Assembly (NCBI GenBank): GCA_049647085.1 | Contig: JBARXA010000007.1 | Span: forward strand, 47,060 to 111,059 | Direction of reading: 5' to 3' | Source of the DNA: Candidatus Humimicrobiia bacterium | Lineage (GTDB): Bacteria > Actinomycetota > Humimicrobiia > JAHJRV01 | Length of the DNA: 64,000 bases | Shown here: positions 651 to 64,000 of the stretch, one piece after another | Layout: every line of letters starts with the position of its first letter | Numbering within the stretch: the stretch's first letter is position 1 | Translations under genes and position numbers: made by a program | The notes under the pieces: generated by a model | What the model saw: the letters and a program-made list of their open reading frames with translations, nothing else | Told to the model about the DNA's origin: nothing | Databases searched by the model: none

Positions 651-721
651 ATTATTCTACCAACATAATAGTAAAGAATTAAGATAAGTTTTAAAAAAGT
701 TTTTCATAACAGGGGTATTTT

Positions 722-3337: not shown

Positions 3338-3466
3338 CATGTATATTATAATTTGATTATTTTTCGCTCACAGCAATTACTCCTTGGAGAACGTCTTATC
3401 CGAGTATAATGATAATTTTAAAATGCATACCTTTTTAATAATATAATTTAGAAGGGAAATAAATAA

Positions 3467-4531: not shown

Positions 4532-4736
4532 ATCATTGTATTAATTAAATTAAACAATTTTAAATTAAAAAATCCATATCTTTTAAATGATTTTAATAGA
4601 AATAAACAAAATAAATAATCGAACCTATGTTTGACTTTTTAATGAATCTATAATATATTTTTATTATATTGATAGGGAATCTCTTTTTATAAAGAGATAG
4701 TTTTAAAGAATTTGGATGTTATGGAAAGGATTAAAT

Positions 4737-8242: not shown

Positions 8243-8375
8243 TAGTAATCACATCTTTTATAAAGGTTTAAATTAAATCCTTACACGTGATTACCTTCTA
8301 ATAAAAATTTAACATTTAGTTTTATTAATTATTCTTAACATTTTGTTATTGTAACAATAAATATTACTGTTAAGA

Positions 8376-8404
8376 TTGACAATATTTCTTTTTTATAGTA
8401 AAAT
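8376..8404 (+). promoter_or_regulatory. Candidate sigma70-type promoter for the GRE locus (TTGACA-17 nt-TAAAAT)
   Basis: TTGACA at 8376-8381, an exact 17-nt spacer, and TAAAAT at 8399-8404. It sits about 145 nt upstream of the first locus gene. A perfect 7-1-7 palindrome TTATTGT-A-ACAATAA lies at 8346-8360. In AT-rich DNA such matches also arise by chance. Confidence 0.35.
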
Positions 8405-8549
8405 TAAAAATAATTGCAATCACTGCTCAAATGTGCAAATAATACACAAAGAAAGTTTCATAATTTATAAAATTTAAATTAAGTATAATAATCTAAAAGA
8501 TCCATTTACAGCGCATTTTTCATTGTTGCTTTCAAAAAAGGAGATTGTA

Positions 8550-9602: not shown

Positions 9603-9605
9603 GAT

Positions 9606-10694: not shown

Positions 10695-13062
10695 TAAAAA
10701 AAATAGAAAACCTATTACGAAAAGAATAGAAAAATTAAGAAATAAAATTATTAATACGGTGCGTAAGTTAGATATTGAGAGAGCAAGATTATTTACTGAA
10801 TCCTATAAAAAGAATGAGAATAAACCTTTAATATTGCGGCGTGCGATGAGCTTATCCTATGTTTTAGAAAATATGACTATAGCTATAGATCCAAATGAAC
10901 TCGTAGTTGGAGATAAGGCAATTGAACCAAGGAATGGTGATGTTTCTCCTGAGATGGCGGTAGATTGGATTAATGAGGAATTAGAAAATTTACCTATTCG
11001 ACCTCAAGATCAATTTAAAGTATCAAGTAGAGATATTTCAGAATTACGCGAAGAAATTTTTCCTTATTGGGAAGGAAAAACATTAAAAGAGGCTATTAAT
11101 AATGCTATGAAAGGTGAAATTAGAAGGGCAATTCAAGAAGGTGTATTTATATTAAATCAAACAGATCATGGGCAAGGACATATATTACCTAATATGGAGA
11201 AGTGGTTAAAGAAAGGAATCTGTGGTTTAAAAAAAGACGTTGAAGAACATATAAATAAATTTAAGAGTTGTGCTAGTAAAAATTATAGGAAGTTTAATTT
11301 TTACAAGTCAGCTCTTATAACACTTGAAGCATCAGAGGTTTTTATAAAACGATATGCAGATTTATCTAAAGAAATGGCTTCTAATTTTGATGGTATGGAA
11401 AAAGAAAATTTATATAAAATATCTGAAATTTGCACTAATTTGATTAATAGACCTCCTATTACTTTCAGAGAAGCTATCCAGGCTTTGTGGTTTCTAATAG
11501 TAATAATTCAAATAGAATCTAATGTTACTTCAATTTCTCCCGGAAGATTGGATCAATACCTTTTCTCATATTATCTTAAAGATATTAATTCCGGAAATAT
11601 TTCAAAGATTCATGCACAAGAAATATTAGAGAATCTTTGGATTAATTTCAACAAAATTGTATTTCTTCGTAGTTCAGAGAGTGCACAATATTATGCTGGA
11701 TTTCCTATGGGCTTTAATATCGCCATAGGAGGTCAAAATATAGATGGAAAAGATGCTACAAATGAATTATCTTATATGTGCTTAAAGGCACAGGAGGACA
11801 TTGGATTCCCTCAACCTAATTTATCAGTAAGATTACATAGTACTACACCAACGGATTTTTTACTAGAAGTTTGTAAAGCAATAAGTTATGGTGATGGACA
11901 ACCACAACTGTTCAATGATGAGGTTATAATTCCTGCACTATTAAATTGTGGTTATTCATATGAGGATGCGAGAAATTATGCTATTGTTGGATGTGTTGAG
12001 ATTTCTGTTCCTGGAAATACAATGGGTCTCACAAATGCTGCTATGGTAAACATGGTCAAAATATTAGAGTTAACTATGAATAATGGAGTATCAAGAACTA
12101 CCCAACATCAGGTTGGTACAAAAACTGGGACTTTGAGTACCTTTGAAGACTTTGAAGAAGCTTTTGAAAAGCAATTAAAACATTTTATTAGTTTAATGGT
12201 TAGAGGATCTAGAATTGTAGAAAAGATGCACGCTAGTATGGTACCTACTCCTTTTCTTTCAACAGTTATTGATAATTGCTTGGAGAAAAGAAAAGATGTA
12301 ACTGATGGTGGCGCAAAATATAATTTTTCAGGAGTTCAAGGTGTTCAAATAGCGAATATAGCTGATTCTCTTATTGTAATTAAAAAAGTTATTTATGAGG
12401 ACAATTTATTAGACCTAAAAAGTTTTAATGTTATTTTAGATAAAAATTATGAAGATGCTGAAGAAATTCGCCAGATGCTAATATATAAACTTCCAAAATA
12501 TGGCAATGATATTGAAGAGGTTGACAATTTAGCTAATAAGTGGGCAAAAAAATATTGTAAGTTGATTGAAGAACATAAAAATTATCGTGGTGGTCAATTT
12601 CATCCTGGATTTTATACAGTTTCTGCATACATTCCTATGGGTTTTGTTGTAGGAGCAACCCCAGATGGACGGAAAGCTTTTAGTCCTCTAGCTGATGGAG
12701 GTCTATCACCAATGAGGGGTTTGGATGTAAAAGGTCCAACAGCAATATTGAAATCTGTATCAAAAATTGATTTATTGTTGGCTTCTAATGGTTCACTTTT
12801 AAATCTTAAGTTCCTCCCCTCCTTCTTTGAAACTGATGGAGCTTTTAAACATTTTTCAGCATTTCTTAGGACGTTTGTTGATCTTAAAGTCCAACATGTT
12901 CAGTTTAATGTTATTTCATCTAAAATTTTAAGGGAAGCACAAAAAGAACCTCAAAATTATAGAAATTTATTAGTAAGAGTTGCGGGTTATAGTGCTTTTT
13001 TTGTAGAACTCTCTAAAGAAATGCAGGAAGAAATAATTATGAGAACAGAGCATACTGGTTAA
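10687..13062 (+). CDS. Glycyl radical enzyme, PFL-like fold, single-Cys eliminase class; substrate unknown
   Basis: 791 aa. N-terminal ERARLFTESYK. Cys loop VGCVE at nt 11989-12000 (GCVE, not the CC of pyruvate formate-lyase). Glycyl radical loop RVAGYSAFF with Gly767 at nt 12985-12987. The TTG start overlaps the kinase stop by 8 nt and is preceded by AAAGGTG. Confidence 0.92.
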   Translation: MGSKKNRKPITKRIEKLRNKIINTVRKLDIERARLFTESYKKNENKPLILRRAMSLSYVLENMTIAIDPNELVVGDKAIEPRNGDVSPEMAVDWINEELENLPIRPQDQFKVSSRDISELREEIFPYWEGKTLKEAINNAMKGEIRRAIQEGVFILNQTDHGQGHILPNMEKWLKKGICGLKKDVEEHINKFKSCASKNYRKFNFYKSALITLEASEVFIKRYADLSKEMASNFDGMEKENLYKISEICTNLINRPPITFREAIQALWFLIVIIQIESNVTSISPGRLDQYLFSYYLKDINSGNISKIHAQEILENLWINFNKIVFLRSSESAQYYAGFPMGFNIAIGGQNIDGKDATNELSYMCLKAQEDIGFPQPNLSVRLHSTTPTDFLLEVCKAISYGDGQPQLFNDEVIIPALLNCGYSYEDARNYAIVGCVEISVPGNTMGLTNAAMVNMVKILELTMNNGVSRTTQHQVGTKTGTLSTFEDFEEAFEKQLKHFISLMVRGSRIVEKMHASMVPTPFLSTVIDNCLEKRKDVTDGGAKYNFSGVQGVQIANIADSLIVIKKVIYEDNLLDLKSFNVILDKNYEDAEEIRQMLIYKLPKYGNDIEEVDNLANKWAKKYCKLIEEHKNYRGGQFHPGFYTVSAYIPMGFVVGATPDGRKAFSPLADGGLSPMRGLDVKGPTAILKSVSKIDLLLASNGSLLNLKFLPSFFETDGAFKHFSAFLRTFVDLKVQHVQFNVISSKILREAQKEPQNYRNLLVRVAGYSAFFVELSKEMQEEIIMRTEHTG

Positions 13063-13301
13063 TTAGTGGATTACTTTAACAGTGAAAAATTGTAATTGTA
13101 TTAATAAAATTTAGTAAAAGGGGGTAAGCGGGGAAATGATGAATTAACTAATTTCTTTAAAAAAGGAGGTGGGATATGAAAAAAATTAGATTTGTTTTAA
13201 GAAAGGTATTGAGTTGAACTCTTTTAAAACCTATTACTTAAAACAAATCTTCATAAAATTTTACTAAACTTTTAATTAAAATCAGAAAAAGAGAGGTTGA
13301 A

Positions 13302-14414
13302 ATGAATTTTCTTAAAAAAGTAATTCTAACGATTGTGACTCTTTCAATTGTTGTATCACTATCACTTGCATTTACTGGTTGCCCTCCTGCAGCACCTACA
13401 GAGGAAGCCACTGAGGTAGAAGAAACTACTGAAAAAGAGGAAGAAGAAGCAGAGACTGAGGAAGAGGAGCCTATAAAGGTAGCATTATTGTTTTCAGGAT
13501 TTTTAGGTGATCAGTCATTTAATGACTCGGCTTATGCGGGTATACAGAGAGCAGTGGATGATTTTGGAATAGAAGTAAAAGTATTTGAATCAAAAGAGCC
13601 TGCTGTTTGGGAACAAAATGTGGTTTCTGCTGCAGACGCTAATTATGATTTGGTACTTTGTGTTTCTACCAATTTCCAAGAATTTATAAAAGATCATGCT
13701 CCAGAATTTCCTGATGTAAAATTTGCTTTAATTGATGGAATTGTGGAAGACGAGCCGAACGTATCTTCAGCGGTTTTTGCTAATAATGAAGGGTGTTTCT
13801 TATCGGGACTAGTTGCAGCAATGTGGACAACAAAGACAGAAATTTCAGGGGTTAATGAAGATAAGATTATAGGATTTGTGAGTGGAATGGATATTCCAGT
13901 TGTGCATGATTTCTTGAAAGGATATGAACAGGGTGCAAGATTAATAGAACCTGATATAGAAGTTTTGGTTTCATGGGCAGGATCTTGGACCGATCCTGTT
14001 AAAGGAAAAGAATTAACCTTAGCACAATATAATCAGGGAGCAGATGTTGTTATGAATGTTGCTTCTGGTACAGGACCTGGAATTCTTGAAGCTGCATCTG
14101 AAGCTGGTAAGTATGCAATAGGTGTTGATTTAAATCAGGATGGATTATTTCCCGGAAGTATAATTACTTCTTTACTTAAAAGAGTAGATAATGCTTGTTA
14201 TGTTACAGTTAAGTCAGTAATAGATGGTACTTTTAAAGGTGGAACTGTAGTAGATATGAATTTAACTAATGGTGGTGTAAGCCTTACTGACTTTTCAGTA
14301 ATGAAAGAAAATATGGGTGATGCTTTTCCTGAAGATGTAATTACCACTGTAGAGGAATATATACAGAAAGTTATAAATGGTGAAATAATAGTAGAGGGTG
14401 AGCCAGGCTTTTAA
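13302..14414 (+). CDS. BMP-family (PnrA/Med-like) ABC transporter substrate-binding lipoprotein
   Basis: Signal peptide with lipobox LAFTGC, then a Glu/Thr-rich linker. The body has the BMP-family pattern (FLGDQSFNDSAY.G...A.....GVD.NQ). Confidence 0.85.
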   Translation: MNFLKKVILTIVTLSIVVSLSLAFTGCPPAAPTEEATEVEETTEKEEEEAETEEEEPIKVALLFSGFLGDQSFNDSAYAGIQRAVDDFGIEVKVFESKEPAVWEQNVVSAADANYDLVLCVSTNFQEFIKDHAPEFPDVKFALIDGIVEDEPNVSSAVFANNEGCFLSGLVAAMWTTKTEISGVNEDKIIGFVSGMDIPVVHDFLKGYEQGARLIEPDIEVLVSWAGSWTDPVKGKELTLAQYNQGADVVMNVASGTGPGILEAASEAGKYAIGVDLNQDGLFPGSIITSLLKRVDNACYVTVKSVIDGTFKGGTVVDMNLTNGGVSLTDFSVMKENMGDAFPEDVITTVEEYIQKVINGEIIVEGEPGF

Positions 14415-14461
14415 TGTAAAAACTTAAGATCCTCCTGATTAATTTGTGCTACTTAGTGAAA

Positions 14462-14497
14462 GTAATGGTTTCTGGTTATCCTATCAGAAACCATTAC
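14462..14497 (+). terminator. Perfect 13-bp stem-loop downstream of the binding-protein gene (intra-operon attenuator or mRNA stabiliser candidate)
   Basis: GTAATGGTTTCTG (14462-14474), a 10-nt loop, then CAGAAACCATTAC (14485-14497). No clear U-tract follows. Confidence 0.5.
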
Positions 14498-14540
14498 CTA
14501 TAAAAAATCTTAGTAATGTATTTTTAAGGAACAAAAACGC

Positions 14541-16067
14541 TTGGATTTTAAATTGATTAATAAAATAATTGAAATGATTAATATAAATAAAAGCTTTCCC
14601 AATGTTAAAGCTGTTGATAATGCTGGAATCGATCTTTATCAAGGGGAAATTCATTCACTCGTGGGAGAAAATGGAGCTGGAAAAACCACGCTTATGAATA
14701 TTTTATATGGATTATATCAACCTGATTCGGGGAAAATTAAGATTAGAGGAAAAGATATGGAATCATTAACCCCCAGGGTTGCTATTGAGCTTGGTATTGG
14801 AATGATACATCAGGAATTTATGTTGGTAAGGGAACTTACAGTTTTAGAAAATATTATATTAGGATTTGAACTAGGTAAATTTGGTAGAATTGATTTTTCA
14901 AAAACTAAGGAAAAAATTAATTACTATCTTGATAATTATAATTTGGAAATTCCACTAAATAAAAAGGTTAGGGATATTTCCGTAGGTGAGGCACAAAGGG
15001 TTGAGATTATAAAGACTTTATATCGTAGTACTGAAATTTTGATATTAGACGAACCAACTGCAGTTTTAACCCCTCAAGAGACAAAAAAATTATTCGAAAT
15101 TTTAAATTTTTTAAAGAAAGATAATAAGTCTATTATTTTCATCTCACATAAATTAAGGGAAGTCATGGAGATAAGTGAAAGAATTACCATAATGCGTAAT
15201 GGTAAGCATGTAAATACAGTAAATAAAGAAGACGTCTCCATAAAAGAATTAGCTAAAATGATGGTTGGCAGAGAAGTTTTTTTAAATATAAAAAGAGAAC
15301 CTTGTAAAAAGAGTAAAAAAATTTTATCTGTCAGGGATATTTATGTTACTGGTGAGAAGGAGCTTTCAAAATTAAAAGGGGTATCTTTTGATGTACATCG
15401 TGGCGAAGTTGTTGGAGTAGCTGGGGTAGATGGAAATGGTCAGAGTGAGCTTGTAGAAGCACTCACAGGTCTTCGTAAAATTGAAAAAGGGGATGTTACA
15501 TTTAAGGGTAAATCAATTAAAAATTTAAGCCCAATAGAAATTAGGAAAGCAGGTATTTCACACATTCCAGAAGATAGGAATCTAAGAGGTTTAAACAGAA
15601 GTTTTACTTTATATGAAAATCTAATAGCTAATCATTTTAATAAAAAACCTTACTCAAGATTAATACAGTTAAATAAAAAGAAAATTACAAAATATGGTAA
15701 TAGATTAATTAAGGAATTTGATATTAGACCAGCTATTGGGAATACAGTTGCTGTAAATTTGTCTGGTGGTAATGCACAAAAGACTGTGGTTGCAAGAGAA
15801 GTGGATATGAATGCAGATTTATTAATTGCTTCTCAACCTACTAGAGGTGTTGATGTAGGTTCTACAGAAGCAATTAGAAATACTATAAATTATATTAAGA
15901 AAAAAGGTGTAGCTGTTTTATTAGTTTCTGCTGATTTAGAAGAAATATTATCTTTATCTGATGTAATACTAGTTATGTATGAAGGCAAAATAAGTGGGAT
16001 TATACCGGCAGAAAAGGCTAGAGAAGATAATATTGGGATCTTAATGACTGGAGGTAAAGTTAAGTGA
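14541..16067 (+). CDS. ABC transporter ATP-binding protein with duplicated ABC domains (sugar/nucleoside importer type)
   Basis: Two Walker A motifs (GENGAGKTT, GVDGNGQSE), LSVGEAQRVEI and LSGGNAQK signatures, and Walker B ILDEPT. The start is ambiguous: TTG 14541 or ATG 14574. Confidence 0.9.
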   Translation: MDFKLINKIIEMININKSFPNVKAVDNAGIDLYQGEIHSLVGENGAGKTTLMNILYGLYQPDSGKIKIRGKDMESLTPRVAIELGIGMIHQEFMLVRELTVLENIILGFELGKFGRIDFSKTKEKINYYLDNYNLEIPLNKKVRDISVGEAQRVEIIKTLYRSTEILILDEPTAVLTPQETKKLFEILNFLKKDNKSIIFISHKLREVMEISERITIMRNGKHVNTVNKEDVSIKELAKMMVGREVFLNIKREPCKKSKKILSVRDIYVTGEKELSKLKGVSFDVHRGEVVGVAGVDGNGQSELVEALTGLRKIEKGDVTFKGKSIKNLSPIEIRKAGISHIPEDRNLRGLNRSFTLYENLIANHFNKKPYSRLIQLNKKKITKYGNRLIKEFDIRPAIGNTVAVNLSGGNAQKTVVAREVDMNADLLIASQPTRGVDVGSTEAIRNTINYIKKKGVAVLLVSADLEEILSLSDVILVMYEGKISGIIPAEKAREDNIGILMTGGKVK

Positions 16068-21375: not shown

Positions 21376-22302
21376 GTGAACAACAATTTTTCTATTGGTG
21401 ATAATAAGGGTCTAATTTTCAACATACAGAGATTCAGTATTCATGATGGTCCTGGGATAAGAACAGTAATATTTTTAAAGGGATGTCCTTTAGTTTGTGG
21501 ATGGTGTTGTAATCCTGAGGGTCAGGATACAGAAATGGAAATAATGTTCCTAAGTGAGAGGTGTATAAATTGTAACACTTGTTACACTGTTTGTGATAAT
21601 GATGCAATCATAAAAAAGCCTAATAAGTATAGAGTCAAAAAAAAATTTTGTAATCTTTGTTGCGAGTGTATAAGAGCGTGTCCTTCCGGAGCTTTAAAAC
21701 TTGTAGGAAGATATTATTCTATAAATGAAGTTATAAAGGAGATTTTAAAGGATGAAATTGTTTATTACAGATCAAATGGAGGGATAACTCTTTCTGGTGG
21801 TGAGCCTCTTTACCAGTGGAAATTTTCATTAAATGTATTTAAGGCTTGTAAAGATTTAGGTATAAATACTGCCTTAGAAACATGCGGTTATGGACCTTGG
21901 GAGAATTTTAAAAAAATTTTAGAGCATGTAGACTGGTTATTTTACGACATTAAACATATTGATTCAGATATTCATAAATATTTAACAAGTGTAGATAATA
22001 AAATAATATTGAAAAATGCGAAAAGAGCTTCTGACTTGAATATAAATATGATTTTGCGTTTTCCAATAATATCAGGTATTCATGACAATGAACAGTACGT
22101 ATTAAAGATTATGAAGCTATCAAAGGAGTTGGGTATTAAAGAAATACATCTACTACCTTATCATAAATGGGGGGTTTCAAAATATAAAAATTTAGGTAGA
22201 CAATACAAATTTGTAGATTTGGAGAAGGTAAAGAATTCTACTTTAGAAAAATTAAATTTGATCCTGGAGTTGGATGGTTTTAAAGTTTCGATTGTAGAAT
22301 AA
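21376..22302 (+). CDS. Glycyl-radical enzyme activating enzyme (radical SAM) with two auxiliary ferredoxin-type cluster motifs
   Basis: Radical SAM motif CPLVCGWC (Cx3Cx2C) within GCPLVCGWCCNPE. Also CINCNTCYTVC and CNLCCECIRACP, plus the GGEPL SAM motif. This architecture is typical of activases for eliminase-class GREs. Confidence 0.9.
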   Translation: MNNNFSIGDNKGLIFNIQRFSIHDGPGIRTVIFLKGCPLVCGWCCNPEGQDTEMEIMFLSERCINCNTCYTVCDNDAIIKKPNKYRVKKKFCNLCCECIRACPSGALKLVGRYYSINEVIKEILKDEIVYYRSNGGITLSGGEPLYQWKFSLNVFKACKDLGINTALETCGYGPWENFKKILEHVDWLFYDIKHIDSDIHKYLTSVDNKIILKNAKRASDLNINMILRFPIISGIHDNEQYVLKIMKLSKELGIKEIHLLPYHKWGVSKYKNLGRQYKFVDLEKVKNSTLEKLNLILELDGFKVSIVE

Positions 22303-54428: not shown

Positions 54429-56369
54429 ATGACAGAAGAGTTCTTAAATAAAACTATAGACCCGGCAACAAAAGAAATGCTCAAATATGCTTATGATAAT
54501 AACATCTCTACTATGTTTTCAAGAGTAGAGGAAATGAAAAAATGTCCAATTGGAGCAGAAGGTAGGTGTTGTAAAAATTGTGCAATGGGTCCTTGCAGAT
54601 TTACTGGAAAGGATTATGAGGAGAAAGTTGGTATATGTGGTGCTACTTTGTCTACAGTTGCAGCTAGAAATCTTGGTAGAGCTATCGCTGCTGGAGCATC
54701 AGCTCACTCAGACCATGGAAGAGACCTTGCTTTAACTTTGAAAGCTGTGGCAAAAGGGGAAGCTCCTGGATATGAAATAAAAGATGAGCAAAAACTATAT
54801 AATGTCGCAAAATTTATGGAAGTGGAAACAGACGGAAGAGATGTAAAAGAAATAGCGCTTGATGTAGCTGATAGAGCACTTGAAGATTTTGGGAGGCAGG
54901 AGGGGATAATCTATTATGTTTCAAGAGCACCTAAAAGGCGTCAGGAGATATGGGAAAAAGCAAGAATATACCCAAGGGGAGTTGATAGAGAAGTTGTTGA
55001 GATGATGCATAGAACCCATATAGGAGTTGATCAGGATGCTGAAAATATACTACGTCATGGATTAAGAACATCATTAAGTGATGGTTGGGGTGGTTCAATG
55101 TTGGCTACAGATATATCAGATATTTTGTTCGGTACACCAAAAGCAGTTTCTTCAACTACGAACCTTGGAGTTTTAAAGGAGGATGAAGTTAATTTAGTTA
55201 TACATGGTCATGAACCAACATTATCTGAAATGATAGTCACTGTTGCAGATGACCCAGAACTTATTAATTATGCTAAATCAAAAGGTGCAAAAGGGATAAA
55301 CATAACTGGAATATGTTGCACTGCAATTGAAATTCTTATGAGACAGGGTGTCCCAGTTGTTGGAAACTTCTTACAACAGGAATTAGCTATATTAACTGGA
55401 GCTGTTGATGCTATGGTTGTAGATATTCAGTGTATAATTCAGGCTTTGGGAAAATTGGTTGAAACTAATCATACAGAACTTATAACTACCTCACCAAAAG
55501 CTAAAATTCCAGGAGCAACCCACATACCTTTTGATGAACACAATGCTCCAGAAATTGCAAAACAGATAATAATGAAAGCTATAGATAATTTTTCAAATAG
55601 AAATGGCACAAGAATTCCAAATGTAAGTAGTCCATTGGTTGCTGGATTTTCACATGAATATATAAATTATATGTTAGGAGGAAAATATAGAGCATCTTTT
55701 AGACCTCTTAATGATGCGATAATTGATGGAAGGATTCAAGGTGTAGTTGGAGTAGTTGGTTGTAATAACCCAAGGGTAACGCATGATAAATCTCATAATT
55801 ATCTAGTTAAAGAGTTAATATCAAGAGATTATTTGGTGGCTCAAACTGGCTGTGGAGCAATTGCATGTTCAAAATACGGATTACTTAGACCTGAGGCAAT
55901 GGAACATGCTGGTGAAGGGCTACGATCTATTTGTGAAACAGTTGGTATCCCACCAGTTCTACATCTTGGTTCATGTGTAGATAACTCAAGGATATTAACA
56001 GTTCTTGCTCAGGTTGTACATGAAGGTGGTTTAGGAGAAGATATAAGCGATCTTCCTGCTGCTGGAATTGCGCCTGAATGGATGAGTGAGAAAGCACTAT
56101 CAATAGGAACTTATTTTGTTGCATCAGGTCTTTATGTTTTATTTGGAGTGGGTTCACCAGTCGGAGGAAGTTCTGAAGTTACCGAAATGATTAATAATGG
56201 ATGGGAAAAATTGATTGGTGGAAAATTGGAATTTGAACCAGATCCTGAAAAAATATTGGAAAAGACAATTGATCATATTCAGAAAAAAAGAAAGGCTTTA
56301 GGAATACATGAAAAGAAAGAACGAGTATTATTTGATATGGAAACAAGAAGGGAGTTAGAAATTGAGTAA
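54429..56369 (+). CDS. cooS: Anaerobic Ni-Fe-S carbon monoxide dehydrogenase catalytic subunit (CooS/AcsA)
   Basis: 646 aa. The N-terminal B/D-cluster motif CPIGAEGRCCKNCAMGPCRF, plus HGHEP, GICCT, GCNNP and GSCVDNSR C-cluster ligand motifs. Confidence 0.95.
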   Translation: MTEEFLNKTIDPATKEMLKYAYDNNISTMFSRVEEMKKCPIGAEGRCCKNCAMGPCRFTGKDYEEKVGICGATLSTVAARNLGRAIAAGASAHSDHGRDLALTLKAVAKGEAPGYEIKDEQKLYNVAKFMEVETDGRDVKEIALDVADRALEDFGRQEGIIYYVSRAPKRRQEIWEKARIYPRGVDREVVEMMHRTHIGVDQDAENILRHGLRTSLSDGWGGSMLATDISDILFGTPKAVSSTTNLGVLKEDEVNLVIHGHEPTLSEMIVTVADDPELINYAKSKGAKGINITGICCTAIEILMRQGVPVVGNFLQQELAILTGAVDAMVVDIQCIIQALGKLVETNHTELITTSPKAKIPGATHIPFDEHNAPEIAKQIIMKAIDNFSNRNGTRIPNVSSPLVAGFSHEYINYMLGGKYRASFRPLNDAIIDGRIQGVVGVVGCNNPRVTHDKSHNYLVKELISRDYLVAQTGCGAIACSKYGLLRPEAMEHAGEGLRSICETVGIPPVLHLGSCVDNSRILTVLAQVVHEGGLGEDISDLPAAGIAPEWMSEKALSIGTYFVASGLYVLFGVGSPVGGSSEVTEMINNGWEKLIGGKLEFEPDPEKILEKTIDHIQKKRKALGIHEKKERVLFDMETRRELEIE

Positions 56370-58542
56370 AATAATTGCATCGGCGGCAATTAGAGGCGCT
56401 CACCAGAAGGTGAAAGAAGCCCAGGAAATATTAGATAAATCATTAGAGCAGTTTGGACCAAAACAAGAGGTTGAGTTTCCTAATACAGGTTATTATTTAC
56501 CCATAATATATGGAATAACGGGAATAGCAATTAAAAAATTGGGGGACATGCAACCGGTTTTGGATGAGGCTAAAAAGTTATTACCGCCTGTTCCTAAAGA
56601 TAAAGTTTGGTTACCATATTTAGGGAATGCATTGGATGCTGGAATGGCTACACTTTTTGCAGAGGAGATTATGGAAGCAATTAAATATATAATGGATCCA
56701 AATCCAGTACAAGATATCTGGCTTGGTGCAGCAGAGGATATGACTATAAGAGAAAGGGGAATAGAATTTGTGGATGGCTCAGCTCCAGGTTTTGCAGCAG
56801 TAATTGGAGCTACTCCAACAAATGATATGGCAGTAAAGATAGCAAGGGAACTTCAGCAAAAGAGTATTTATATATTAATGTCTGGAAATACTAATGGAAA
56901 AGCATTTGCTGAACAGCTGAATGAAGAGGGAGTTGATTTAGGATGGGAAACCAGACTTGTTCCATTTGGAAAGGAAATAGGAGCTACAGTTTATTCTTTA
57001 GGTTTTGCAACAAGAGTTGCATTAACATTTGGTGGAGTAAAACCGGGAGATTATAGAAGGGTCCTTCTTTACAATAAAAACAGGATTTTTGCATTTGTAC
57101 TTGCATTAGGTGAAGTTACTGATGAGAAGTATGCTAATGCAGCGGGAGCTATAAATTTTGGATTTCCGACAATTGCAGATACTGATATTCCTTCAATTCT
57201 TCCAAGAGGAGTTTGTACTTACGAACATGTTGTACCAAGTATAAAAAGGGAGGAAATTGTCTCTAAAGGGATTGAGGTAAGAGGACTCAAATTAACTATT
57301 ACAGAAGTACCTGTACCAATACCATACGGCCCAGCATTTGAGGGTGAGAGAGTTAGGAAAGAAGATATGCACGCTGAATTTGGTGGAACAAAGAGTAAAT
57401 GTTTGGAATTTTTATATACAAAAGATTTAGCTGAAGTTGAGGATGGGAAGATTGAGTTAATTGGTCCAGACGTAGATACAATAGAACCAGGTACTGCAAT
57501 TCCATTAGCAATTATTGTAGAAGTTGCAGGGAGGGATATGCAACCCGATTTTGAACCAATATTGGAGAGACAGATTCACCATTTCACAAATTATGGTCAT
57601 GGTTTATTACATATTGGTCAAAGGGATATTTCCTGGATAAGAATAAGTAAAGATGCTTATAATGCTGGATTCAGAATAGAGGATATTGGAAAAATAATTC
57701 ATGCAAAGTTACATAGTGATTTTGGAGCTATTCTGGATAAAGTTCAGGTAAAACTATATACAGATGAAAAGCAAGTAGAAGAACTTTTAAAAGTTGCTAA
57801 ACCAGTTTATAAAGTAAGGGATGATAGAATTGGTGCACTAACTGATGAGAGTGTAGATACTTTCTATTCCTGCACATTATGTCAATCGTTTGCTCCAAAT
57901 CATGTTTGTATTATTTCCCCAGAAAGACCAGGACTTTGTGGTGCATACAATTGGCTGGACGGAAAAGCATCTAATCAGATAAATCCTACTGGACCTAATC
58001 AACCAGTTAAAAAAGGAGAATTGATTGATAAGCATCTTGGGCAATGGAAAGGTGTTAATGAATTTGTTTATAAAAATTCTCACCAAACGCTTGCTACATT
58101 TAGTGCATATTCAATGATTAATGATCCTATGACTTCATGTGGTTGTTTTGAAACAATAGTTGCAGTTCTTCCAATGACAGGTGGAGTAATGGTTGTTCCA
58201 AGAGAACACCCTGATATGACTCCATGTGGAATGAAATTCTCAACACTGGCTGGTTCTGTTGGTGGCGGAGTCCAGACACCAGGCTTTATTGGAGTTAGTA
58301 AGTTCTTTTTAAGCAGCAAGAAGTTTATAAAAGCCGATGGAGGATTTAAACGCTTGGTATGGATGCCAAAAATGTTGAAGGAAGAAGTAAGAGAAGCATT
58401 TCAACACAGAGCGGATGAATTAGAAATCCCGGATTTTCTGGACAAGATTGCGACTGAGGAAAATGCTGTAACAGAAGAGGAAGTTCTTAATTTTATACAA
58501 AAAGTAGGACATCCAGTATTAGAAATGGAATCAATGTTCTAA
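56362..58542 (+). CDS. acsB: CO-methylating acetyl-CoA synthase (bacterial AcsB, A-cluster subunit)
   Basis: 726 aa and collinear with Moorella-type AcsB. Carries FYSCTLCQSFAPNHVCIISPERPGLCGAYNWLD and MTSCGCFE (A-cluster Cys-Gly-Cys). The TTG start overlaps the cooS stop by 8 nt. Confidence 0.95.
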   Translation: MSKIIASAAIRGAHQKVKEAQEILDKSLEQFGPKQEVEFPNTGYYLPIIYGITGIAIKKLGDMQPVLDEAKKLLPPVPKDKVWLPYLGNALDAGMATLFAEEIMEAIKYIMDPNPVQDIWLGAAEDMTIRERGIEFVDGSAPGFAAVIGATPTNDMAVKIARELQQKSIYILMSGNTNGKAFAEQLNEEGVDLGWETRLVPFGKEIGATVYSLGFATRVALTFGGVKPGDYRRVLLYNKNRIFAFVLALGEVTDEKYANAAGAINFGFPTIADTDIPSILPRGVCTYEHVVPSIKREEIVSKGIEVRGLKLTITEVPVPIPYGPAFEGERVRKEDMHAEFGGTKSKCLEFLYTKDLAEVEDGKIELIGPDVDTIEPGTAIPLAIIVEVAGRDMQPDFEPILERQIHHFTNYGHGLLHIGQRDISWIRISKDAYNAGFRIEDIGKIIHAKLHSDFGAILDKVQVKLYTDEKQVEELLKVAKPVYKVRDDRIGALTDESVDTFYSCTLCQSFAPNHVCIISPERPGLCGAYNWLDGKASNQINPTGPNQPVKKGELIDKHLGQWKGVNEFVYKNSHQTLATFSAYSMINDPMTSCGCFETIVAVLPMTGGVMVVPREHPDMTPCGMKFSTLAGSVGGGVQTPGFIGVSKFFLSSKKFIKADGGFKRLVWMPKMLKEEVREAFQHRADELEIPDFLDKIATEENAVTEEEVLNFIQKVGHPVLEMESMF

Positions 58543-58581
58543 ATTAGATTTACAAGATAAGAATAATATTTGGAGGTTATA

Positions 58582-58806
58582 GTGGAAAAGGAAGTATTAA
58601 TAACTAAAGATATGACTATTGGAGAAGTTGTAACTAAATATCCTCAAACTATGCCAGTTTTTTTTAGCTACGGTCTTCCATGTGTGGGATGCCATGTTGC
58701 TAATTGGGAAAGTGTTGAGGAGGGAGCAGTTGCCCATGGAATTAAAGATGTTAAAAAATTAGTTGAGGATTTAAACAAAGTTGCTGAGCAAGTTAATATT
58801 AAATAG
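58582..58806 (+). CDS. DUF1858 domain protein (hybrid-cluster-protein-associated redox disulfide family)
   Basis: ITKDMTIGEVVTKYPQTMPVFFSYGLPCVGCHVA....VEEGAVAHGI matches the DUF1858 pattern with its CxxC. The likely GTG start is at 58582, after TTGGAGG; the ORF track starts at 58570. Confidence 0.7.
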   Translation: MEKEVLITKDMTIGEVVTKYPQTMPVFFSYGLPCVGCHVANWESVEEGAVAHGIKDVKKLVEDLNKVAEQVNIK

Positions 58807-58873
58807 AGAAAATATTAACATAATATTTTCTTAATCTATAATATTCTCTTAAATATCCACATTAGGAGTTAGT

Positions 58874-59242
58874 TTGAATCAAAAGCTATTTGAAAATTAT
58901 GAATTTATTTTCATAGTAGTATTTGTTCCATTAATCATAATAATTTTGTTTTATTTATTACAAAAATTTATTAATTTCATTTCTGGTAAATCAACCACCA
59001 CTAAATCTTCTACAAAAATGCATCCAAAAAGTTACAATTTGCAAACATTTACTATAGGCTATTTAGAACCTATTCTTATTGTGATAATACTTTTTTATGA
59101 GGTAGGTTTATTATTTTTTGGAGGTTTAATAGTATTGTCTTCACTTAATGGAAAATTTATAGCCATAGTTATGACTATTTTAATCTTATTGTTTATTTTG
59201 GGCTTAATTTTAATATATAGAATGTATAGTACAAAGTATTAA
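58874..59242 (+). CDS. Small 3-TM membrane protein, possibly a very divergent NuoA-like subunit
   Basis: 122 aa and three hydrophobic segments, in the position of nuoA directly upstream of a nuoB-like gene. Resemblance to NuoA is weak: HPKSY...ILFYEVGLLFF versus P.K..YE.G...lF.iFDvE..Fl. Confidence 0.35.
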   Translation: MNQKLFENYEFIFIVVFVPLIIIILFYLLQKFINFISGKSTTTKSSTKMHPKSYNLQTFTIGYLEPILIVIILFYEVGLLFFGGLIVLSSLNGKFIAIVMTILILLFILGLILIYRMYSTKY

Positions 59243-59321: not shown

Positions 59322-59771
59322 ATGTTAGATAAACCTAAACATTTAAGAAAAATTAAATTTCTGAATAGATTAAAAAATTGGGTGAAGTTAACATCTATAA
59401 ATGTATATTGCTTTTCATCAGGATGTTGTGGAGATGAAATTTTGGCAACTTATGGGCCCGTTTATGACCTTGAGAGATTGGGAGTAAACTTTGTCTCTTC
59501 TCCAGAAAGAGCGGATGTTCTAATGATAGCGGGAATCATCACCAAAGAAATGAAATCCACATTAGAAGATTTATATAACAGCACCGAAGATAAGAAAGTG
59601 GTAATAGCGGTTGGCTCATGTGCAATAAATGGGGGTCCTTTTTACAAAAGCGATTATATATTAAATGGAGTAAAAGAAATTTTTAATGTGGACCTTTATG
59701 TACCAGGTTGTCCACCAAGACCAGAAGCAATTATATATTCAATTTTAAGATATAAGGACAGGTTTAAATAA
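59322..59771 (+). CDS. NuoB-like [4Fe-4S] subunit (complex I / group-4 hydrogenase small-subunit family)
   Basis: 149 aa. Carries SGCCGDE (tandem Cys as in NuoB), SPERADVLMIAG, GSCAINGGPF and VPGCPPRPEAI. Confidence 0.85.
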   Translation: MLDKPKHLRKIKFLNRLKNWVKLTSINVYCFSSGCCGDEILATYGPVYDLERLGVNFVSSPERADVLMIAGIITKEMKSTLEDLYNSTEDKKVVIAVGSCAINGGPFYKSDYILNGVKEIFNVDLYVPGCPPRPEAIIYSILRYKDRFK

Positions 59772-59857
59772 CAAACCAAAAATATTAACAAAATATTGAA
59801 TTTTAAAAGAGGGTGTAAAAAATAGATACTTATAGCATATATATTGAGCCTAAATTT

Positions 59858-60904
59858 ATGCCATTTGGATTTCCCATTGGATTGAATATTGACTTAAAAG
59901 AAGATGTGGTTATTAATTTGAATCCAGATTTTGGATATTTAAGGACTGGTGTTGAAAAAATAATTGAGGGAATAGAAATTGATAAGGTTATTCCATTTAT
60001 TAATAGAGTTGATACTAGCAGTGCGATATCTGTCGAACTTGCATATTGTATTGCCTTAGAAAATTATTTCAAAATAGAGGTACCCATAAGAGCAAAATTT
60101 ATTCGGGTAATTCTCAGTGAACTTTCGAGAATATCCAGTCATATACTATTTTTAACCAAGTTAGCGAATGCATTGGGTATGAATATGCCACTTCATTATT
60201 GCTTGAGAGAAAGAGAAGAAATACTTCATCTTATAGAGGTTGCAACAGGATCGAGACTAACTCCAAATTTTGTAAGAGTTGGGGGTATAAAAAGTGATTT
60301 GAGCATGCAGTTTTTTGACAAATTAAAAGAAATGTTAAAGGGTTTTAGAAAAAAGGTTCATGAGATAAGAGTATTTTTCTTAGAGAATGAGCTGGTAGTT
60401 AATAGACTAAATAATTTGGGTATTTTAGTAAAAGAAGATGCTATTAAATTAGCTATTAGTGGTCCAAACTTAAGAGCCCTGGGGGTATCCCGGGATATTA
60501 GAAAAAATGATAATTACGAAATATATGATGAGTTAAATTTCAAAGTGCCCATTGGTGATAGAGGAGATAGTTTGGACAGATGTATGGTTAGAATAGAGGA
60601 AATAGAAAAATCTATTTCTATTATTTCGCAGGCTCTTTATAAAGTGCCAGAGGGAAAAATAAGAACATATGGTGTAGTTAATACTCATTTAACGGAAAAT
60701 ATATATAGCCATGTTGAATGTCCCCACGGTGAACTGGGTATGAATATGTCAGTAAGTGAGGGTAGAATAGCTAAATTAAGCATAAAAGGACCTTCATATA
60801 ATAACCTGTTTGCTTTTTCAAAAGCAGTTATAGGTGAAAAACTCGAGGATATTGAATTAATACTGGCAAGTTTTGATATCTGTGTGTGTGAGGTAGATAA
60901 ATGA
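59858..60904 (+). CDS. NuoD-like / [NiFe]-hydrogenase large-subunit-like protein lacking the NiFe and quinone ligands
   Basis: 348 aa. Carries GYLRTGVEK, PIRAKFIRVILSELSRISSHILFL, RVGGI, GDSLDRCMVRIEEI, ECPHGELG and C-terminal SFDICVCEVDK. It is collinear with NuoD but N-terminally short. Its stop overlaps the next start (ATGA). Confidence 0.8.
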   Translation: MPFGFPIGLNIDLKEDVVINLNPDFGYLRTGVEKIIEGIEIDKVIPFINRVDTSSAISVELAYCIALENYFKIEVPIRAKFIRVILSELSRISSHILFLTKLANALGMNMPLHYCLREREEILHLIEVATGSRLTPNFVRVGGIKSDLSMQFFDKLKEMLKGFRKKVHEIRVFFLENELVVNRLNNLGILVKEDAIKLAISGPNLRALGVSRDIRKNDNYEIYDELNFKVPIGDRGDSLDRCMVRIEEIEKSISIISQALYKVPEGKIRTYGVVNTHLTENIYSHVECPHGELGMNMSVSEGRIAKLSIKGPSYNNLFAFSKAVIGEKLEDIELILASFDICVCEVDK

Positions 60905-61854
60905 TTTTAAAAGCTTTATATTTCTTATTATTTCTATTTTTAGGACTATATATAATTATCTACCTTCATAAGAAAGCACTAGCTCATATGCAATCAAGAA
61001 GAGGACCATTACAAACTGGTTTTCATGGAACTTTACAAATATTTTCTCAAATTTTGAAATCAATTTTAAATTGGCCAAAATTATTTACCAGTTTGCAAGA
61101 TCTATCTAATAACATTGGAGTGATGATCTCACTTACATTTGCCATATTAGCCTTTCTGTTAATTCCCCTGACAGAAGATATTTTCTTAATGAATATTGAG
61201 ATGTCCCTGCCACTTTGTCTTTCTTTTATTATGATATCCAACATGGGTGCATTTCTTTCAATTAAGAAGGTTAAATTAAATACGAATAAAATGGCAGATT
61301 TATTAGATAGGATATCTACTGTTCTTATATTTAGCATTCCATTATTCATATCATCTATGGGGCCTGTAATAGTTTCGTCATCTTTTAATCTTTTTGAAAT
61401 AGTTCGAGCGCAAAGTAGATTCTATAACATCTTATACCAACCATTAAGTTTTATTGTTTTTTTATTAAGTTGTTCTTTGCTTTGGCAGAGATTACCTCTT
61501 GATGTTCCATTAAAGGATACCTACTTTAGTACTGATTATCTTTCTACTCAAACTGGATTGAATTATCTAATATCTACCATCTCTGAGTATATTAATATTA
61601 TATCCTTATTGATTCTGGGAACCCTACTTTATCTTGGTGGGTGGAATGGTCCAAAAAATTTACATCCACTGGTCTGGACTATAATAAAGACTTTTATTTT
61701 ACAAGTAATACTATTATTTTTATATACTATTATTCCCAGAATAAGAGGTTTTAGAAAAAAAATGAATTTAAGTTTAGCCATTCTTTGTTTATTATCATTT
61801 TTAAACTTATTGATTATAATATTTTTGGTTCTTTATTTGAAACCTGTTTTTTGA
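60901..61854 (+). CDS. NuoH-like membrane subunit (divergent)
   Basis: 317-aa polytopic protein. N-terminal MQSRRGPLQTG..GTLQ resembles NuoH mQ.R.GPn.vG..GllQ. The pattern R.P.D......EY.N......LYLGGW lies near the C-terminus. Confidence 0.65.
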   Translation: MILKALYFLLFLFLGLYIIIYLHKKALAHMQSRRGPLQTGFHGTLQIFSQILKSILNWPKLFTSLQDLSNNIGVMISLTFAILAFLLIPLTEDIFLMNIEMSLPLCLSFIMISNMGAFLSIKKVKLNTNKMADLLDRISTVLIFSIPLFISSMGPVIVSSSFNLFEIVRAQSRFYNILYQPLSFIVFLLSCSLLWQRLPLDVPLKDTYFSTDYLSTQTGLNYLISTISEYINIISLLILGTLLYLGGWNGPKNLHPLVWTIIKTFILQVILLFLYTIIPRIRGFRKKMNLSLAILCLLSFLNLLIIIFLVLYLKPVF

Positions 61855-61863
61855 GTTTAGCTT

Positions 61864-62286
61864 ATGAAGGGTATATTTAGAAGTTTAATAACTGTTATCA
61901 GAAATACATTTAAGAGATCTGTAACTGTTCTTTATCCACATGATAGAATAATGGTTCCTTATAATAGCAGGGGAAGCATTCAATTAATGGTGGATCCAGA
62001 TACAAGAAAGATCCTCTGTGATGGATGTGGTCAATGCGAGAAATCTTGTCCATTAAAATTGATATCTATTGAAGTAGATATCAGTAATAAAAAATTAAAA
62101 AGTTTTTATATAGATATTAGCAGATGTATGTTCTGTGGTTTTTGTGAGGAAGCATGCAAGAAAAAAGCATTGAAAATGAGTTTTAATTATGAGCTGACTG
62201 AAAAGGATTTTTCAGCTTTAAAATATGATATTGAAAAATTAACCAAACACGCGAGGCCGAAGTTAAGGAAATTCTGGAAAACTTAA
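61864..62286 (+). CDS. NuoI-like 2x[4Fe-4S] ferredoxin subunit
   Basis: 140 aa. Two cluster motifs, CDGCGQCEKSCP and CMFCGFCEEACK. The size and N-terminal (L)YP... motif fit NuoI. Confidence 0.8.
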   Translation: MKGIFRSLITVIRNTFKRSVTVLYPHDRIMVPYNSRGSIQLMVDPDTRKILCDGCGQCEKSCPLKLISIEVDISNKKLKSFYIDISRCMFCGFCEEACKKKALKMSFNYELTEKDFSALKYDIEKLTKHARPKLRKFWKT

Positions 62287-62335: not shown

Positions 62336-62824
62336 TTGGAAAACATATTATTTTATATAGTATCAATACTTATTATAATGGGTGCTTTAGGTATTGTTCT
62401 TTTTAAAAAGCATCTATTTATAGTTTTGAGTTTTTTGATCTGTGTTTTAAGCATAAGTTTTCTTTTTTTATTTTTGAAAAATTCTGTTCTCTTTTTATTT
62501 ATATATATTCCCCTTCCAGCAATAATCGCGGGTCTATTATTGGCAGGAATTGGAGAAAGGGAGAATCTAGTTTTTAATTGGAAAAGAGATTGGCCAAGAA
62601 CTTTTATAGCAATTTTTATAGCCATATTAGTATTATTAGGTCTTGTTTTTGTGATTAATAATAGTAAGTGGGAAACAACTAAAGTTGATGAATTTCAATC
62701 CACTTCTCCAGCAAAAATTGCCGAGATATTATATGTTGAACATACTACACTTCTGATAATTATATTTATTTATTTTATCAGCTTTTTTGTTGGAATATAT
62801 TTTGTTTCTAAAGATAGGAAGTAG
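62336..62824 (+). CDS. NuoJ-like membrane subunit (tentative)
   Basis: 162 aa. Three N-terminal TM helices, a loop and a C-terminal TM helix. Its position between the I-like and K-like genes fits. Motif similarity is weak. TTG start. Confidence 0.5.
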   Translation: MENILFYIVSILIIMGALGIVLFKKHLFIVLSFLICVLSISFLFLFLKNSVLFLFIYIPLPAIIAGLLLAGIGERENLVFNWKRDWPRTFIAIFIAILVLLGLVFVINNSKWETTKVDEFQSTSPAKIAEILYVEHTTLLIIIFIYFISFFVGIYFVSKDRK

Positions 62825-62827
62825 ATA

Positions 62828-63172
62828 GTGTTTTCTCTAAAAAATTATTTATATATATCCACGATTATATTCTGTTTAGGAATTTTTGGTGTCTTATTTA
62901 GAAGAAAGTTTTTATATAAGTTAATTAGTTCTTCACTAATAGCTTTATCAGCTATTATTAATTTTATTTCCTTCTCTTATTTTTTATATCCTGAAAAGAT
63001 TTTTCAACTGACTTTAATTATATTTATGATTGGCCTAATAATTATGCAGTTTGCTATAGGATTTTTTGTTTATTACCTTATTAAAAGAGAAGGGAAAGAT
63101 ATAGATCTAAAAAGGAGGGACCCCTTTTTAGAATTAAATTTAAAAATTGCTAACTTTTTTAGGAGGAAGTAA
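62828..63172 (+). CDS. NuoK-like membrane subunit (divergent; conserved Glu residues replaced)
   Basis: 114 aa with three TM helices. IIFCLGIFGVLFRRKFLY aligns with E. coli NuoK ILFVLGLTGLVIRRNLLF. GTG start. Confidence 0.55.
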   Translation: MFSLKNYLYISTIIFCLGIFGVLFRRKFLYKLISSSLIALSAIINFISFSYFLYPEKIFQLTLIIFMIGLIIMQFAIGFFVYYLIKREGKDIDLKRRDPFLELNLKIANFFRRK

Positions 63173-64000
63173 TTGTCAATTGACTTTTCTCTTATAATTC
63201 CTGAACTATTAATACTCTCTTCATTTCTTTTTGTTTTGTTACTTTTAGTTTTTAGTAGTGTGACAAAATTAAGATGGTTAAGTTATTCTTGTATTTTAGT
63301 AGTAATAGCTGCAATGGCTTTAACCTTTGTATTTAAAGACAGAATGGGAATTGTATCGGATAACTTTTTAGAGGTTAGTAAGATTTCAACCTTTTTTAGA
63401 TATTTATTTCTTTTTTCAGGGGCGAGTCTTTTAATTTCGCTAATTGTCTCTAAAGTAGAAAAACCTGGTATTTATGCTTTAATTCTAATTTCAATATTTG
63501 GTGCGATGTCACTTGGACTTAGTTCAAATCTATTATCACTACTAATGTTTTTAGAAATTGTTACAGTCTCGTCTTATTTTATCCCTACTTTAAAATTTGA
63601 GAAAATTGACTGGCTCTCATATCTGAGATATGTCATTTTTGGGATAATTTCAACCTTTTTATTTATATATTTGTTTTCCTTTATATATGGAATATCGGGA
63701 TCTCTTTCTTTAAATGTTAATTTTACAAACATTGATATTAATAAAGTAAATATTTTATTAATCATAGTGCATATAGTTATAATGGTAATAATGTCAATTA
63801 GATTGTCCCTATTCCCATTTCATATTTTGTTTCCCTCTCTTGCTAAAGATAGTGGTTTTTTTACAACACTTTTTTTCTCAATTCTTGTTATTCCTGTAAA
63901 TTTCCTGGCTCTTAAGAAGATATTAAATATAGCTGGTCATTTGGATAATACACCTCTTTTTGATAATTTTCTTGTAATTTTAATTCTCGTTTTCATAACA
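63173..64000 (+). CDS. NuoL/M/N-family antiporter-like subunit, 5' part (continues beyond the window); not in the supplied ORF track
   Basis: A TTG at 63173 lies 5 nt after AGGAGGA, and the frame stays open for 276 codons to the window end. Translation: LSIDFSLIIPELLILSS...LLSLLMFLEIVTVSSYF...IRLSLFPFHILFPS.... This matches the NuoN-type l.lflglE..sl and K...PFH.W.P patterns. Confidence 0.6.
   Translation, partial: MSIDFSLIIPELLILSSFLFVLLLLVFSSVTKLRWLSYSCILVVIAAMALTFVFKDRMGIVSDNFLEVSKISTFFRYLFLFSGASLLISLIVSKVEKPGIYALILISIFGAMSLGLSSNLLSLLMFLEIVTVSSYFIPTLKFEKIDWLSYLRYVIFGIISTFLFIYLFSFIYGISGSLSLNVNFTNIDINKVNILLIIVHIVIMVIMSIRLSLFPFHILFPSLAKDSGFFTTLFFSILVIPVNFLALKKILNIAGHLDNTPLFDNFLVILILVFIT

Follow-up and report, generated by a model that had tools for sequence, protein, structure and literature searches.

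The window studied here (the whole 64,000-nucleotide stretch of DNA from a Candidatus Humimicrobiia bacterium) carries, at positions 59858–60904, a gene for a NuoD-like protein in which, judging by alignment, both the quinone ligands of complex I and the full ligand set of [NiFe]-hydrogenases are missing, and which ends in an unusual Cys-x-Cys tail. The gene lies on the + strand, as do all the genes of its operon and the cooS and acsB genes upstream of it. It is a genuine open reading frame (ORF) of 348 amino acids that matches the Pfam family Complex1_49kDa (E 6e-67), whereas the NiFe-hydrogenase large-subunit family of Pfam gives only a marginal match below the cut-off (E 6e-4). Its best solved relative in HMMER searches is Nqo4 of Thermus (E 1.5e-59), while the Pyrococcus proteins MbhL and MbsL are matched at about 1e-40. 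An AlphaFold2 model built from an 87-sequence alignment has a mean predicted local distance difference test (pLDDT) score of 92.4 and is aligned by Foldseek with 49-kDa/NDUFS2 chains of complex I at TM-scores of 0.90–0.94. On the other hand, the protein falls short of the NCBIfam equivalogs for NuoD (NF004739, 314.6 against a cut-off of 360; TIGR01962, 287.9 against 459) and for FpoD (NF040602, 262.5 against 600), and the NCBI product name for the members of its clade (hereafter the window clade) is 'hypothetical protein'.

The ligand positions of the NuoD pocket were read from MAFFT alignments of 87 and 268 homologues, with column counts taken over 82 non-clade (canonical) sequences, and were placed pairwise by HMMER against Thermus Nqo4 and against MbhL (6cfw_L). 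The quinone triad of Nqo4, His38/Tyr87/Asp139, corresponds to Gly4/Thr53/Ala105 in the window protein. At the His38 column, which holds His in 68/82 canonical sequences, the MAFFT alignments place Gly4 (59867–59869); at the Tyr87 column, where Tyr is found in 70 and Trp in 10 of the 82, both MAFFT and HMMER against Nqo4 place Thr53 (60014–60016); and Asp139 is aligned by HMMER with Ala105 (60170–60172). In addition, the His of the GYLHRG motif (72/82) is replaced by Arg29, the change from YLHTG to YLRTG that had already been pointed out in the original prediction, an earlier annotation of this DNA made from the sequence alone. The same prediction described the N-terminal GPQHPSTHG segment as reduced and its quinone-ligand His as absent. 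The His is indeed gone, but the segment is substituted rather than shortened: GPQH-PSTH-GVLR aligns without gaps to EPKF-MPFG-FPIG in both MAFFT alignments, the equivalent of GPQHPSTHG being EPKFMPFGFPIG, and the first four residues of EPKF-MPFG-FPIG are encoded 5' of the annotated ATG.

With regard to the NiFe site, neither the N-terminal RxCGxC nor the C-terminal DPCxxC ligand set is complete. The N-terminal cysteine positions are filled by Asp52 and Ser55 of the RVDTSS segment (60005–60022; HMMER and MAFFT), the same segment that sets Thr53 on Tyr87, and which had rightly been described as having neither Tyr nor Cys at these places. At the C-terminus, HMMER aligns SFDICVCEV to SIDPCLSCT of MbhL, so that the two cysteines of CxxC correspond to Cys342 and Glu345, and the Ser between them to Cys344. 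The Cys342-Val-Cys344 tail (60881–60889; supported by HMMER against MbhL, MAFFT, codon variation and the clade sequences) has therefore its second cysteine one residue too near for the second C-terminal NiFe-ligand position, as had been predicted. Among the core motifs, PIRAKFIRV...SSH and RVGGI are kept, in agreement with the original prediction; ECPHGELG, which had been counted with them, is in fact altered at two positions, since compared with E-[N/S/A]-P-[K/R]-G of canonical NuoD and EAPRG of hydrogenases it carries Cys288 and His290 at the variable places (Cys288-Pro-His290, 60719–60727; HMMER against MbhL, MAFFT and clade sequences). His290 falls on the position of the pendant arginine of [NiFe]-hydrogenases (Lys or Arg in NuoD), which we take to lie in the PRG motif. 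In hydrogenases an arginine stands directly over Ni and Fe (PMC10430524). As far as these alignments go, the pocket is stripped of the quinone triad and of three of the four NiFe cysteines. The loss of both ligand sets is a common phenomenon among NuoD homologues and is not peculiar to the window clade, a motif classifier finding neither set in 46/268 homologues.

The annotated ATG is probably not the start of this gene. Relatives with 67–69% identity have 371–378 amino acids and start 23–30 residues earlier, and upstream of the ATG at 59858 the window continues in frame with the codons ATA GAT ACT TAT AGC ATA TAT ATT GAG CCT AAA TTT, the frame reading TAA(59816)-K-I-D-T-Y-S-I-Y-I-E-P-K-F from a TAA stop at 59816–59818. 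The peptide DTYSIYIEPKF resembles ETYSIYFEPQF of the longer relatives, and in the AlphaFold2 model the N-terminal extension folds as a beta strand (extension residues 4–8). A truncated N-terminus was considered as a true trait of the family and was rejected, because the relatives are longer and codons for the homologous strand are present, in frame, 5' of the ATG in the window. The annotated ATG is an ACG in the closest relatives, loci L001 (95% identity; 4510–4550) and L004 (91%; about 1410–1470), which explains why the public gene calls in this sub-lineage start at three different places and give proteins of 348, 332 and 328 amino acids. No canonical start codon is present 5' of the conserved beta1-strand codons in the window, L001 or L004, and a Shine-Dalgarno-like AGAGGGTG lies at 59808–59815, 6 nt 5' of the ATA at 59822. 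A non-AUG start near this ATA is likely the most economical reading of the N-terminus, and the probable true extent of the gene is 59822–60904, given the in-frame beta1-strand codons. The case bears on annotation as well, since pipelines label such genes 'NADH-quinone oxidoreductase subunit D' or 'hypothetical', with the start codon at three positions.

The gene belongs to an operon, and the gene order is invariant in the window and in seven related loci (L001, L002 and L004–L008): a DUF1858 protein, a 122-amino-acid protein with three transmembrane (TM) segments, NuoB, NuoD, NuoH, NuoI, NuoJ, NuoK and a NuoN-like antiporter subunit of about 495 amino acids, followed by unrelated genes. The three-TM protein (58874–59242) keeps its place in all relatives at the position of NuoA; it has no Pfam or NCBIfam match and a PDB profile search returned only noise, so that NuoA identity lacks profile support and we retain the name 'NuoA-position protein' only. 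The four cysteines of cluster N2 are all present in NuoB (59322–59771; Pfam/NCBIfam and alignments), the tandem CC among them, as are both 4Fe-4S motifs in NuoI (61864–62286; profiles), all the iron-sulfur ligands being conserved. The wire of three clusters, two in NuoI and N2 in NuoB, is therefore intact as judged by its ligand motifs, and ends at N2. The membrane subunits comprise NuoH (60901–61854; profiles and alignments), a weakly matching NuoJ (62336–62824; NCBIfam and alignments), NuoK (62828–63172; Pfam and alignments) and the 5' part of the NuoN-like subunit (63173–64000; profiles and relatives), which begins with TTG and leaves the window, its relatives having 492–498 amino acids. 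Together with the three-TM protein, NuoB, NuoD and NuoI, these make eight subunits. On the other hand, NuoC, E, F, G, L and M all failed to appear when the window and the loci of five relatives were searched by tblastn with E. coli and L015 queries (the latter from a metagenomic contig described below), although NuoC, L and M may be encoded elsewhere in the genome. As a side observation, a 27-nt near-palindrome, TCTAAAAAGGAGGGACCCCTTTTTAGA, lies at 63106–63132 within the 3' end of nuoK, before the antiporter gene, and is terminator-like on both strands.

In the membrane arm, the E-channel carboxylates of NuoH, J and K are absent. NuoH is without most of its conserved acidic residues, namely (E. 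coli numbering) E36, D63, E71/D72, E157 and the acidic Glu cluster of the TM5-6 loop; in NuoK both membrane glutamates are replaced (E36 by Ser and E72 by Gln); the equivalent of Tyr59 is missing in NuoJ; and the antiporter subunit lacks the central Lys (K247) and has Arg for the TM7 Lys, keeping the TM5 Glu, the TM12 Lys and His224. The E. coli and canonical L015 subunits, aligned together with these proteins as a control, keep every one of the residues, which validates the alignments. The same losses are found in the sister group of the window clade and in the short operon of L015, and they are therefore a trait of the family.

The relatives also tell in which direction the change took place. 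In neighbour-joining (NJ) trees, which are the only ones built (268 homologues, one tree rooted with hydrogenases), the window clade joins a sister group of Actinomycetota proteins of about 500 amino acids; the union has 88% bootstrap support and each group alone 100%. Both groups have in common the ECPHG motif, the operon order and a downstream DUF1287 gene. Fused to the NuoD of the sister group is an additional N-terminal domain, which hhalign identifies as a degenerate NuoC (probability 94%, E 1.3e-7), as in the operons of L010 (9603–15233) and L011 (9143–15400). In these two loci, moreover, none of the conserved charged residues is left in the antiporter-like subunit, which has ceased to match Pfam Proton_antipo_M. 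The next branch out is homologue P0122 (70% bootstrap), with the motifs IDSSS, ECPHGELG and SFDICLSEVDR. A scan of genome contigs gave no match for its context; a scan of metagenomes gave L015 (metagenomic contig, 397–14794), in which a canonical nuo operon (D-H-I-J-K-L-M-N) is directly followed by a short operon with an A-position gene, B, C, D, H, I, J, K and one antiporter-like subunit. It is the NuoD of this short operon that carries IDSSS, ECPHG and a single C-terminal Cys. NuoC is thus free in L015, degenerate and fused in the sister group and absent from the window clade. This series, together with the closer similarity to canonical NuoD than to hydrogenases, indicates on sequence grounds, and as far as NJ trees can show, that the window protein is a derived, secondarily reduced form that arose by stepwise loss.

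An evolutionary intermediate, one of the two readings offered by the original prediction, would here stand between the group 4 [NiFe]-hydrogenases and complex I. In its favour, neither ligand set is complete, and Cys is retained at one of the four NiFe-ligand positions, as it is in the sulfur-reducing complex MBS. The rest of the data do not support it: the window protein resembles canonical NuoD more than it does MbhL or MbsL, the NuoB partner has the complex-I-type tandem CC, the genes follow the order of nuo operons and include J and K, canonical-ligand lineages branch before and beside the window clade in the hydrogenase-rooted NJ tree, and the relatives show NuoC being lost in steps. We consider the intermediate very improbable.

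A decaying pseudogene or a relic operon without function would be another way to explain the absence of a canonical start codon in the window's sub-lineage, the loss of many canonical functional residues in several subunits and a ratio of non-synonymous to synonymous substitutions (dN/dS) that is not very low. For six loci compared pairwise by Nei-Gojobori (15 pairs, dS reaching about 1.0), however, this ratio is 0.19–0.27 throughout, well under 1, which shows purifying selection on the NuoD-like gene. Across lineages as far apart as dS of about 0.9–1.0, all eight ORFs remain intact and in synteny, all Fe-S ligands are conserved, and synonymous codon changes occur at Glu287, Pro289, His290, Val343 and Cys344, the residues themselves being fixed. 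Orthologues with the same C-x-C tail were looked for and do exist, CVC and ECPHGE being kept in 35/35 complete clade sequences; the Tyr87-equivalent position, by contrast, varies between S, T, N and C within the clade. Of the roughly 79 member sequences in the listed clusters, the 37 that were read show no disrupted gene, the only incomplete ones being fragments at contig ends. The dN/dS values, the intact syntenic operons and the conservation at the codon level refute decay, to which we give almost no credence. In a profile search of 1.84 billion representatives, the clade appeared as a single cluster at 50% identity (738 bits), with the next match at 278 bits; the sources of its members are metagenomes of marine sediments and of the subsurface, together with metagenome-assembled genomes (MAGs) labelled Actinomycetota or Actinomycetes. 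It is a narrow clade of AT-rich uncultured sediment Actinomycetota; the G+C content of the whole window, 30%, is unusually low for Actinomycetota, the label of the closest MAGs.

Directly 5' of the nuo-like genes lie cooS (54429–56369) and acsB (56362–58542), i.e., genes of the carbon monoxide dehydrogenase/acetyl-CoA synthase (CODH/ACS), in an arrangement likewise found in L001 and L002. The two genes overlap by 8 nt and are on their own: acsC, acsD and acsE (corrinoid protein and methyltransferase) were not noted nearby, and it is the nuo-like operon that comes next. Between acsB and the nuo-like genes is the DUF1858 gene (58570–58806), whose 78-amino-acid product has a CVGC motif and matches TIGR03980, the 'hybrid cluster protein-associated redox disulfide domain'; it is present at the same place in L002, L004 and L007, and may belong to the repair of the CODH/ACS clusters or to the nuo-like complex.

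Putting these observations together, the explanation we favour, with a probability of roughly 0.45, is that the gene product is the NuoD-type subunit of a membrane complex akin to complex I, secondarily reduced to eight subunits, linked to ferredoxin and reducing a non-quinone acceptor, perhaps by thiol chemistry. The parts of this explanation differ in strength. That the enzyme is a reduced relative of complex I with a non-canonical pocket is highly probable; that its acceptor is something other than a quinone is about an even bet; and that thiol/disulfide chemistry takes place at the C-x-C is a tentative proposal. In the mechanism envisaged, ferredoxin, the carrier of CODH/ACS, would exchange electrons with NuoI, from which they would pass to N2 and then to a non-quinone acceptor in the remodelled NuoD pocket. 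By homology, this pocket would be lined by Cys342, Cys344, Cys288-Pro-His290, Asp52 and Glu345, and Cys342 should occupy the place of C385 of MbsL, since the two are matched in the end-to-end HMMER alignment and both stand, as the first C-terminal NiFe-ligand Cys, 6 residues from the C-terminus. The most likely chemistry would be thiol-based, either a redox-active dithiol-disulfide formed by Cys342 and Cys344 or a sulfur/disulfide reduction as in MBS, and the gene for the CVGC redox-disulfide-domain protein upstream speaks in its favour. Ion translocation would be at most weak and non-canonical, by way of the single antiporter-like subunit.

Several points weigh against this explanation. About half of the alignment columns are invariant within the shallow clade, so that the invariance of the Cys and His residues is weak functional evidence. 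The sister group has CPH without CxC, and P0122 has CPH with only the first C-terminal Cys; going by these sequences, Cys288, His290, Cys342 and Cys344 are not an obligate unit. The closeness of these four residues to one another and to N2, as well as the ferredoxin partner and the CODH/ACS link, are things we infer, the former from homology to hydrogenase and MBS structures and the latter from gene adjacency only. The equivalent cysteines of MBS are not catalytic (PMC7684303), and the loss of the E-channel could mean that the complex is not energy-converting at all. Finally, the nuo-like genes may be transcribed separately from cooS–acsB, as a promoter-like site with 11/12 matches lies at 58815–58842, between the DUF1858 gene and the three-TM gene. 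In the AT-rich DNA of the window, the scan for promoters and terminators gave counts at or below chance and this one 11/12 site alone is noteworthy; the same scan showed no terminator-like site between the two genes.

The rival to be taken most seriously, although we regard it as rather unlikely, is that the complex still reduces (mena)quinone or another lipophilic carrier, with the substrate held by non-canonical residues. The NuoD fold and the cavity-forming NuoB and NuoH partners are kept, NuoB has the tandem-Cys N2 motif typical of quinone-reducing complex I, and Nuo complexes without the quinone triad are on record in Sulfolobus, Nautiliales and Desulfurobacteriales (PMC4758237), where binding of this kind has been suggested for the NuoD homologues. 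However, all three head-group ligands have been replaced by small, non-hydrogen-bonding or variable residues, and nothing is left of the acidic residues of the NuoH TM5-6 loop or of the E-channel, through which pumping is coupled to quinone chemistry. Moreover, no quinone-biosynthesis or cytochrome genes were seen among 30 further ORFs scanned in the window, a weak argument, coming from one window and uninformative on the whole genome.

The invariant Cys and His residues invite yet another interpretation, namely a new cofactor site at the place of the NiFe centre, in which a metal ion or a small cluster would be held by Cys288, His290, Cys342 and Cys344, possibly joined by Asp52 and Glu345. 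These are four soft ligands, invariant in the clade, that sit at or beside ligating or capping positions of the NiFe site, the first C-terminal Cys and the pendant Arg (PMC10430524), and HypD and HypE are encoded in the same window. The geometry, however, is a prediction, the sister group and P0122 are without one or both of the CxC cysteines, and C-x-C is a poor chelating spacing for a single metal ion; in addition, the Hyp genes lie about 55 kb away and could serve soluble NiFe hydrogenases of the kind reported from another class of Actinobacteria, UBA1414 (PMC7325909). A metal site is, in our opinion, improbable. A site repurposed for another substrate or cofactor, as the original prediction offered, is compatible with the purifying selection, the intact Fe-S chain and the conserved Cys and His residues, and is not demonstrated by them.

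Among known systems, respiratory complex I and the 11-subunit Nuo complexes are the best match in sequence and in structure, with the same B-D-H-I-J-K-N order and the tandem-Cys N2; the window complex differs from them by the absence of His38/Tyr87/Asp139, of NuoC, L and M in the operon, of the E-channel carboxylates and of the central Lys of the antiporter. A further parallel may be drawn with MBS of Pyrococcus furiosus (MbsL, PDB 6U8Y), where the NuoD/hydrogenase-large-subunit homologue likewise lacks His38, Tyr87 and a NiFe site, and C385 is about 12 Å from the proximal cluster (PMC7684303). MBS is driven by ferredoxin, as proposed for the window complex, and like the latter it has no NuoEFG. 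On the other hand, MbsL retains the N-terminal cysteine C85, while the window protein has Asp and Ser there; the proximal cluster of MBS has three Cys, against the tandem CC and four Cys of the window NuoB; the membrane arm of MBS is large, of the Mrp type, and includes two antiporter-like subunits, against a single NuoN-like subunit in the window complex; and the window protein is less similar to MbsL (E 6e-40) than to Nqo4. Another example is provided by the 'ancestral-type' Nuo10/Nuo11 complexes of Nautiliales, Desulfurobacteriales and Sulfolobus, in which NuoD is without His38 and has non-hydrogen-bonding residues in place of Tyr87 and Asp139, and for which a non-quinone function has been proposed (Degli Esposti, 2015, PMC4758237). 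In their operons NuoC, whether on its own or fused with NuoD, is retained along with L, M and N, of which the window operon has only a NuoN-like gene, and as far as described they have neither a CxC tail nor CPH, the distinction being drawn by description only. In FpoD, Tyr87 is kept in the absence of His38 and Asp139 (PMC4758237), in contrast to Thr53 of the window protein.

The Ehr complexes are membrane complexes akin to group 4 hydrogenases and complex I whose large subunit is without Ni and Fe ligands (PMC6349859). In this they agree with the window complex, the comparison being made by description; the latter branches with NuoD and not with hydrogenases, and has homologues of NuoI, J and K in nuo order. 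Ech hydrogenases are minimal complexes with a single antiporter-like subunit and without a NuoC homologue, linked to ferredoxin and in some organisms encoded beside CODH. The window complex, with ferredoxin as its proposed partner, resembles them in these points; on the other hand, they have a true NiFe site, and they lack homologues of NuoA, J and K. In a study on Wood-Ljungdahl Actinobacteria, nuo is found among the abbreviations of the figures of Wood-Ljungdahl/CODH-ACS gene clusters, without analysis of the genes (PMC7325909), and a limited literature search yielded no description of a natural complex I without NuoL and NuoM, or of such short operons. NuoD homologues with neither ligand set are thus known already, from MBS, Ehr and the Nuo of Nautiliales, Desulfurobacteriales and Sulfolobus; what is new is that a C-x-C tail is combined with CPH, that a conserved operon has dispensed with NuoC, L and M as well as with the E-channel, and that it has a fixed place beside cooS–acsB.

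The biological significance of this operon lies in the fact that complex-I-type enzymes are usually divided into three kinds: proton reducers with a NiFe site, sulfur reducers such as MBS, and quinone reducers. The window complex is conserved and drastically reduced, with a full iron-sulfur wire but without either known acceptor site, without NuoC, L and M, and without the chain of carboxylates regarded as essential for coupling. If active, it shows which parts of the complex I machine are dispensable, and it hints at an unrecognised electron acceptor in acetogenic sediment Actinomycetota. More speculatively, the window clade, the sister group and the L015-type operon might constitute a family of 'short' relatives of complex I not described so far (B-(C)-D-H-I-J-K with a single antiporter-like subunit, without E-channel and quinone ligands) joining the ferredoxin pool to a non-quinone acceptor; in the window clade, the pool would be that of the CODH/ACS of the Wood-Ljungdahl pathway, and the acceptor a thiol or disulfide at Cys-x-Cys/Cys-Pro-His near N2. 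We hold this extension to be unlikely as a whole; if true, the family would be a new kind of ferredoxin-dependent reductase in the membrane, and the coupling machinery of complex I would have in it a natural minimal version.

With regard to the rest of the window, genes for HypD and a HypE-like protein are found at its start (722–1804 and 2291–3337, respectively), the latter matching AIRS and AIRS_C only; owing to their presence, the organism probably makes a true NiFe hydrogenase encoded elsewhere. Finally, a glycyl-radical enzyme with PFL-like and Gly_radical domains is encoded at 10687–13062 and a radical-SAM/4Fe-4S protein, its candidate activase, at 21376–22302, a pair which is consistent with a fermentative anaerobe.

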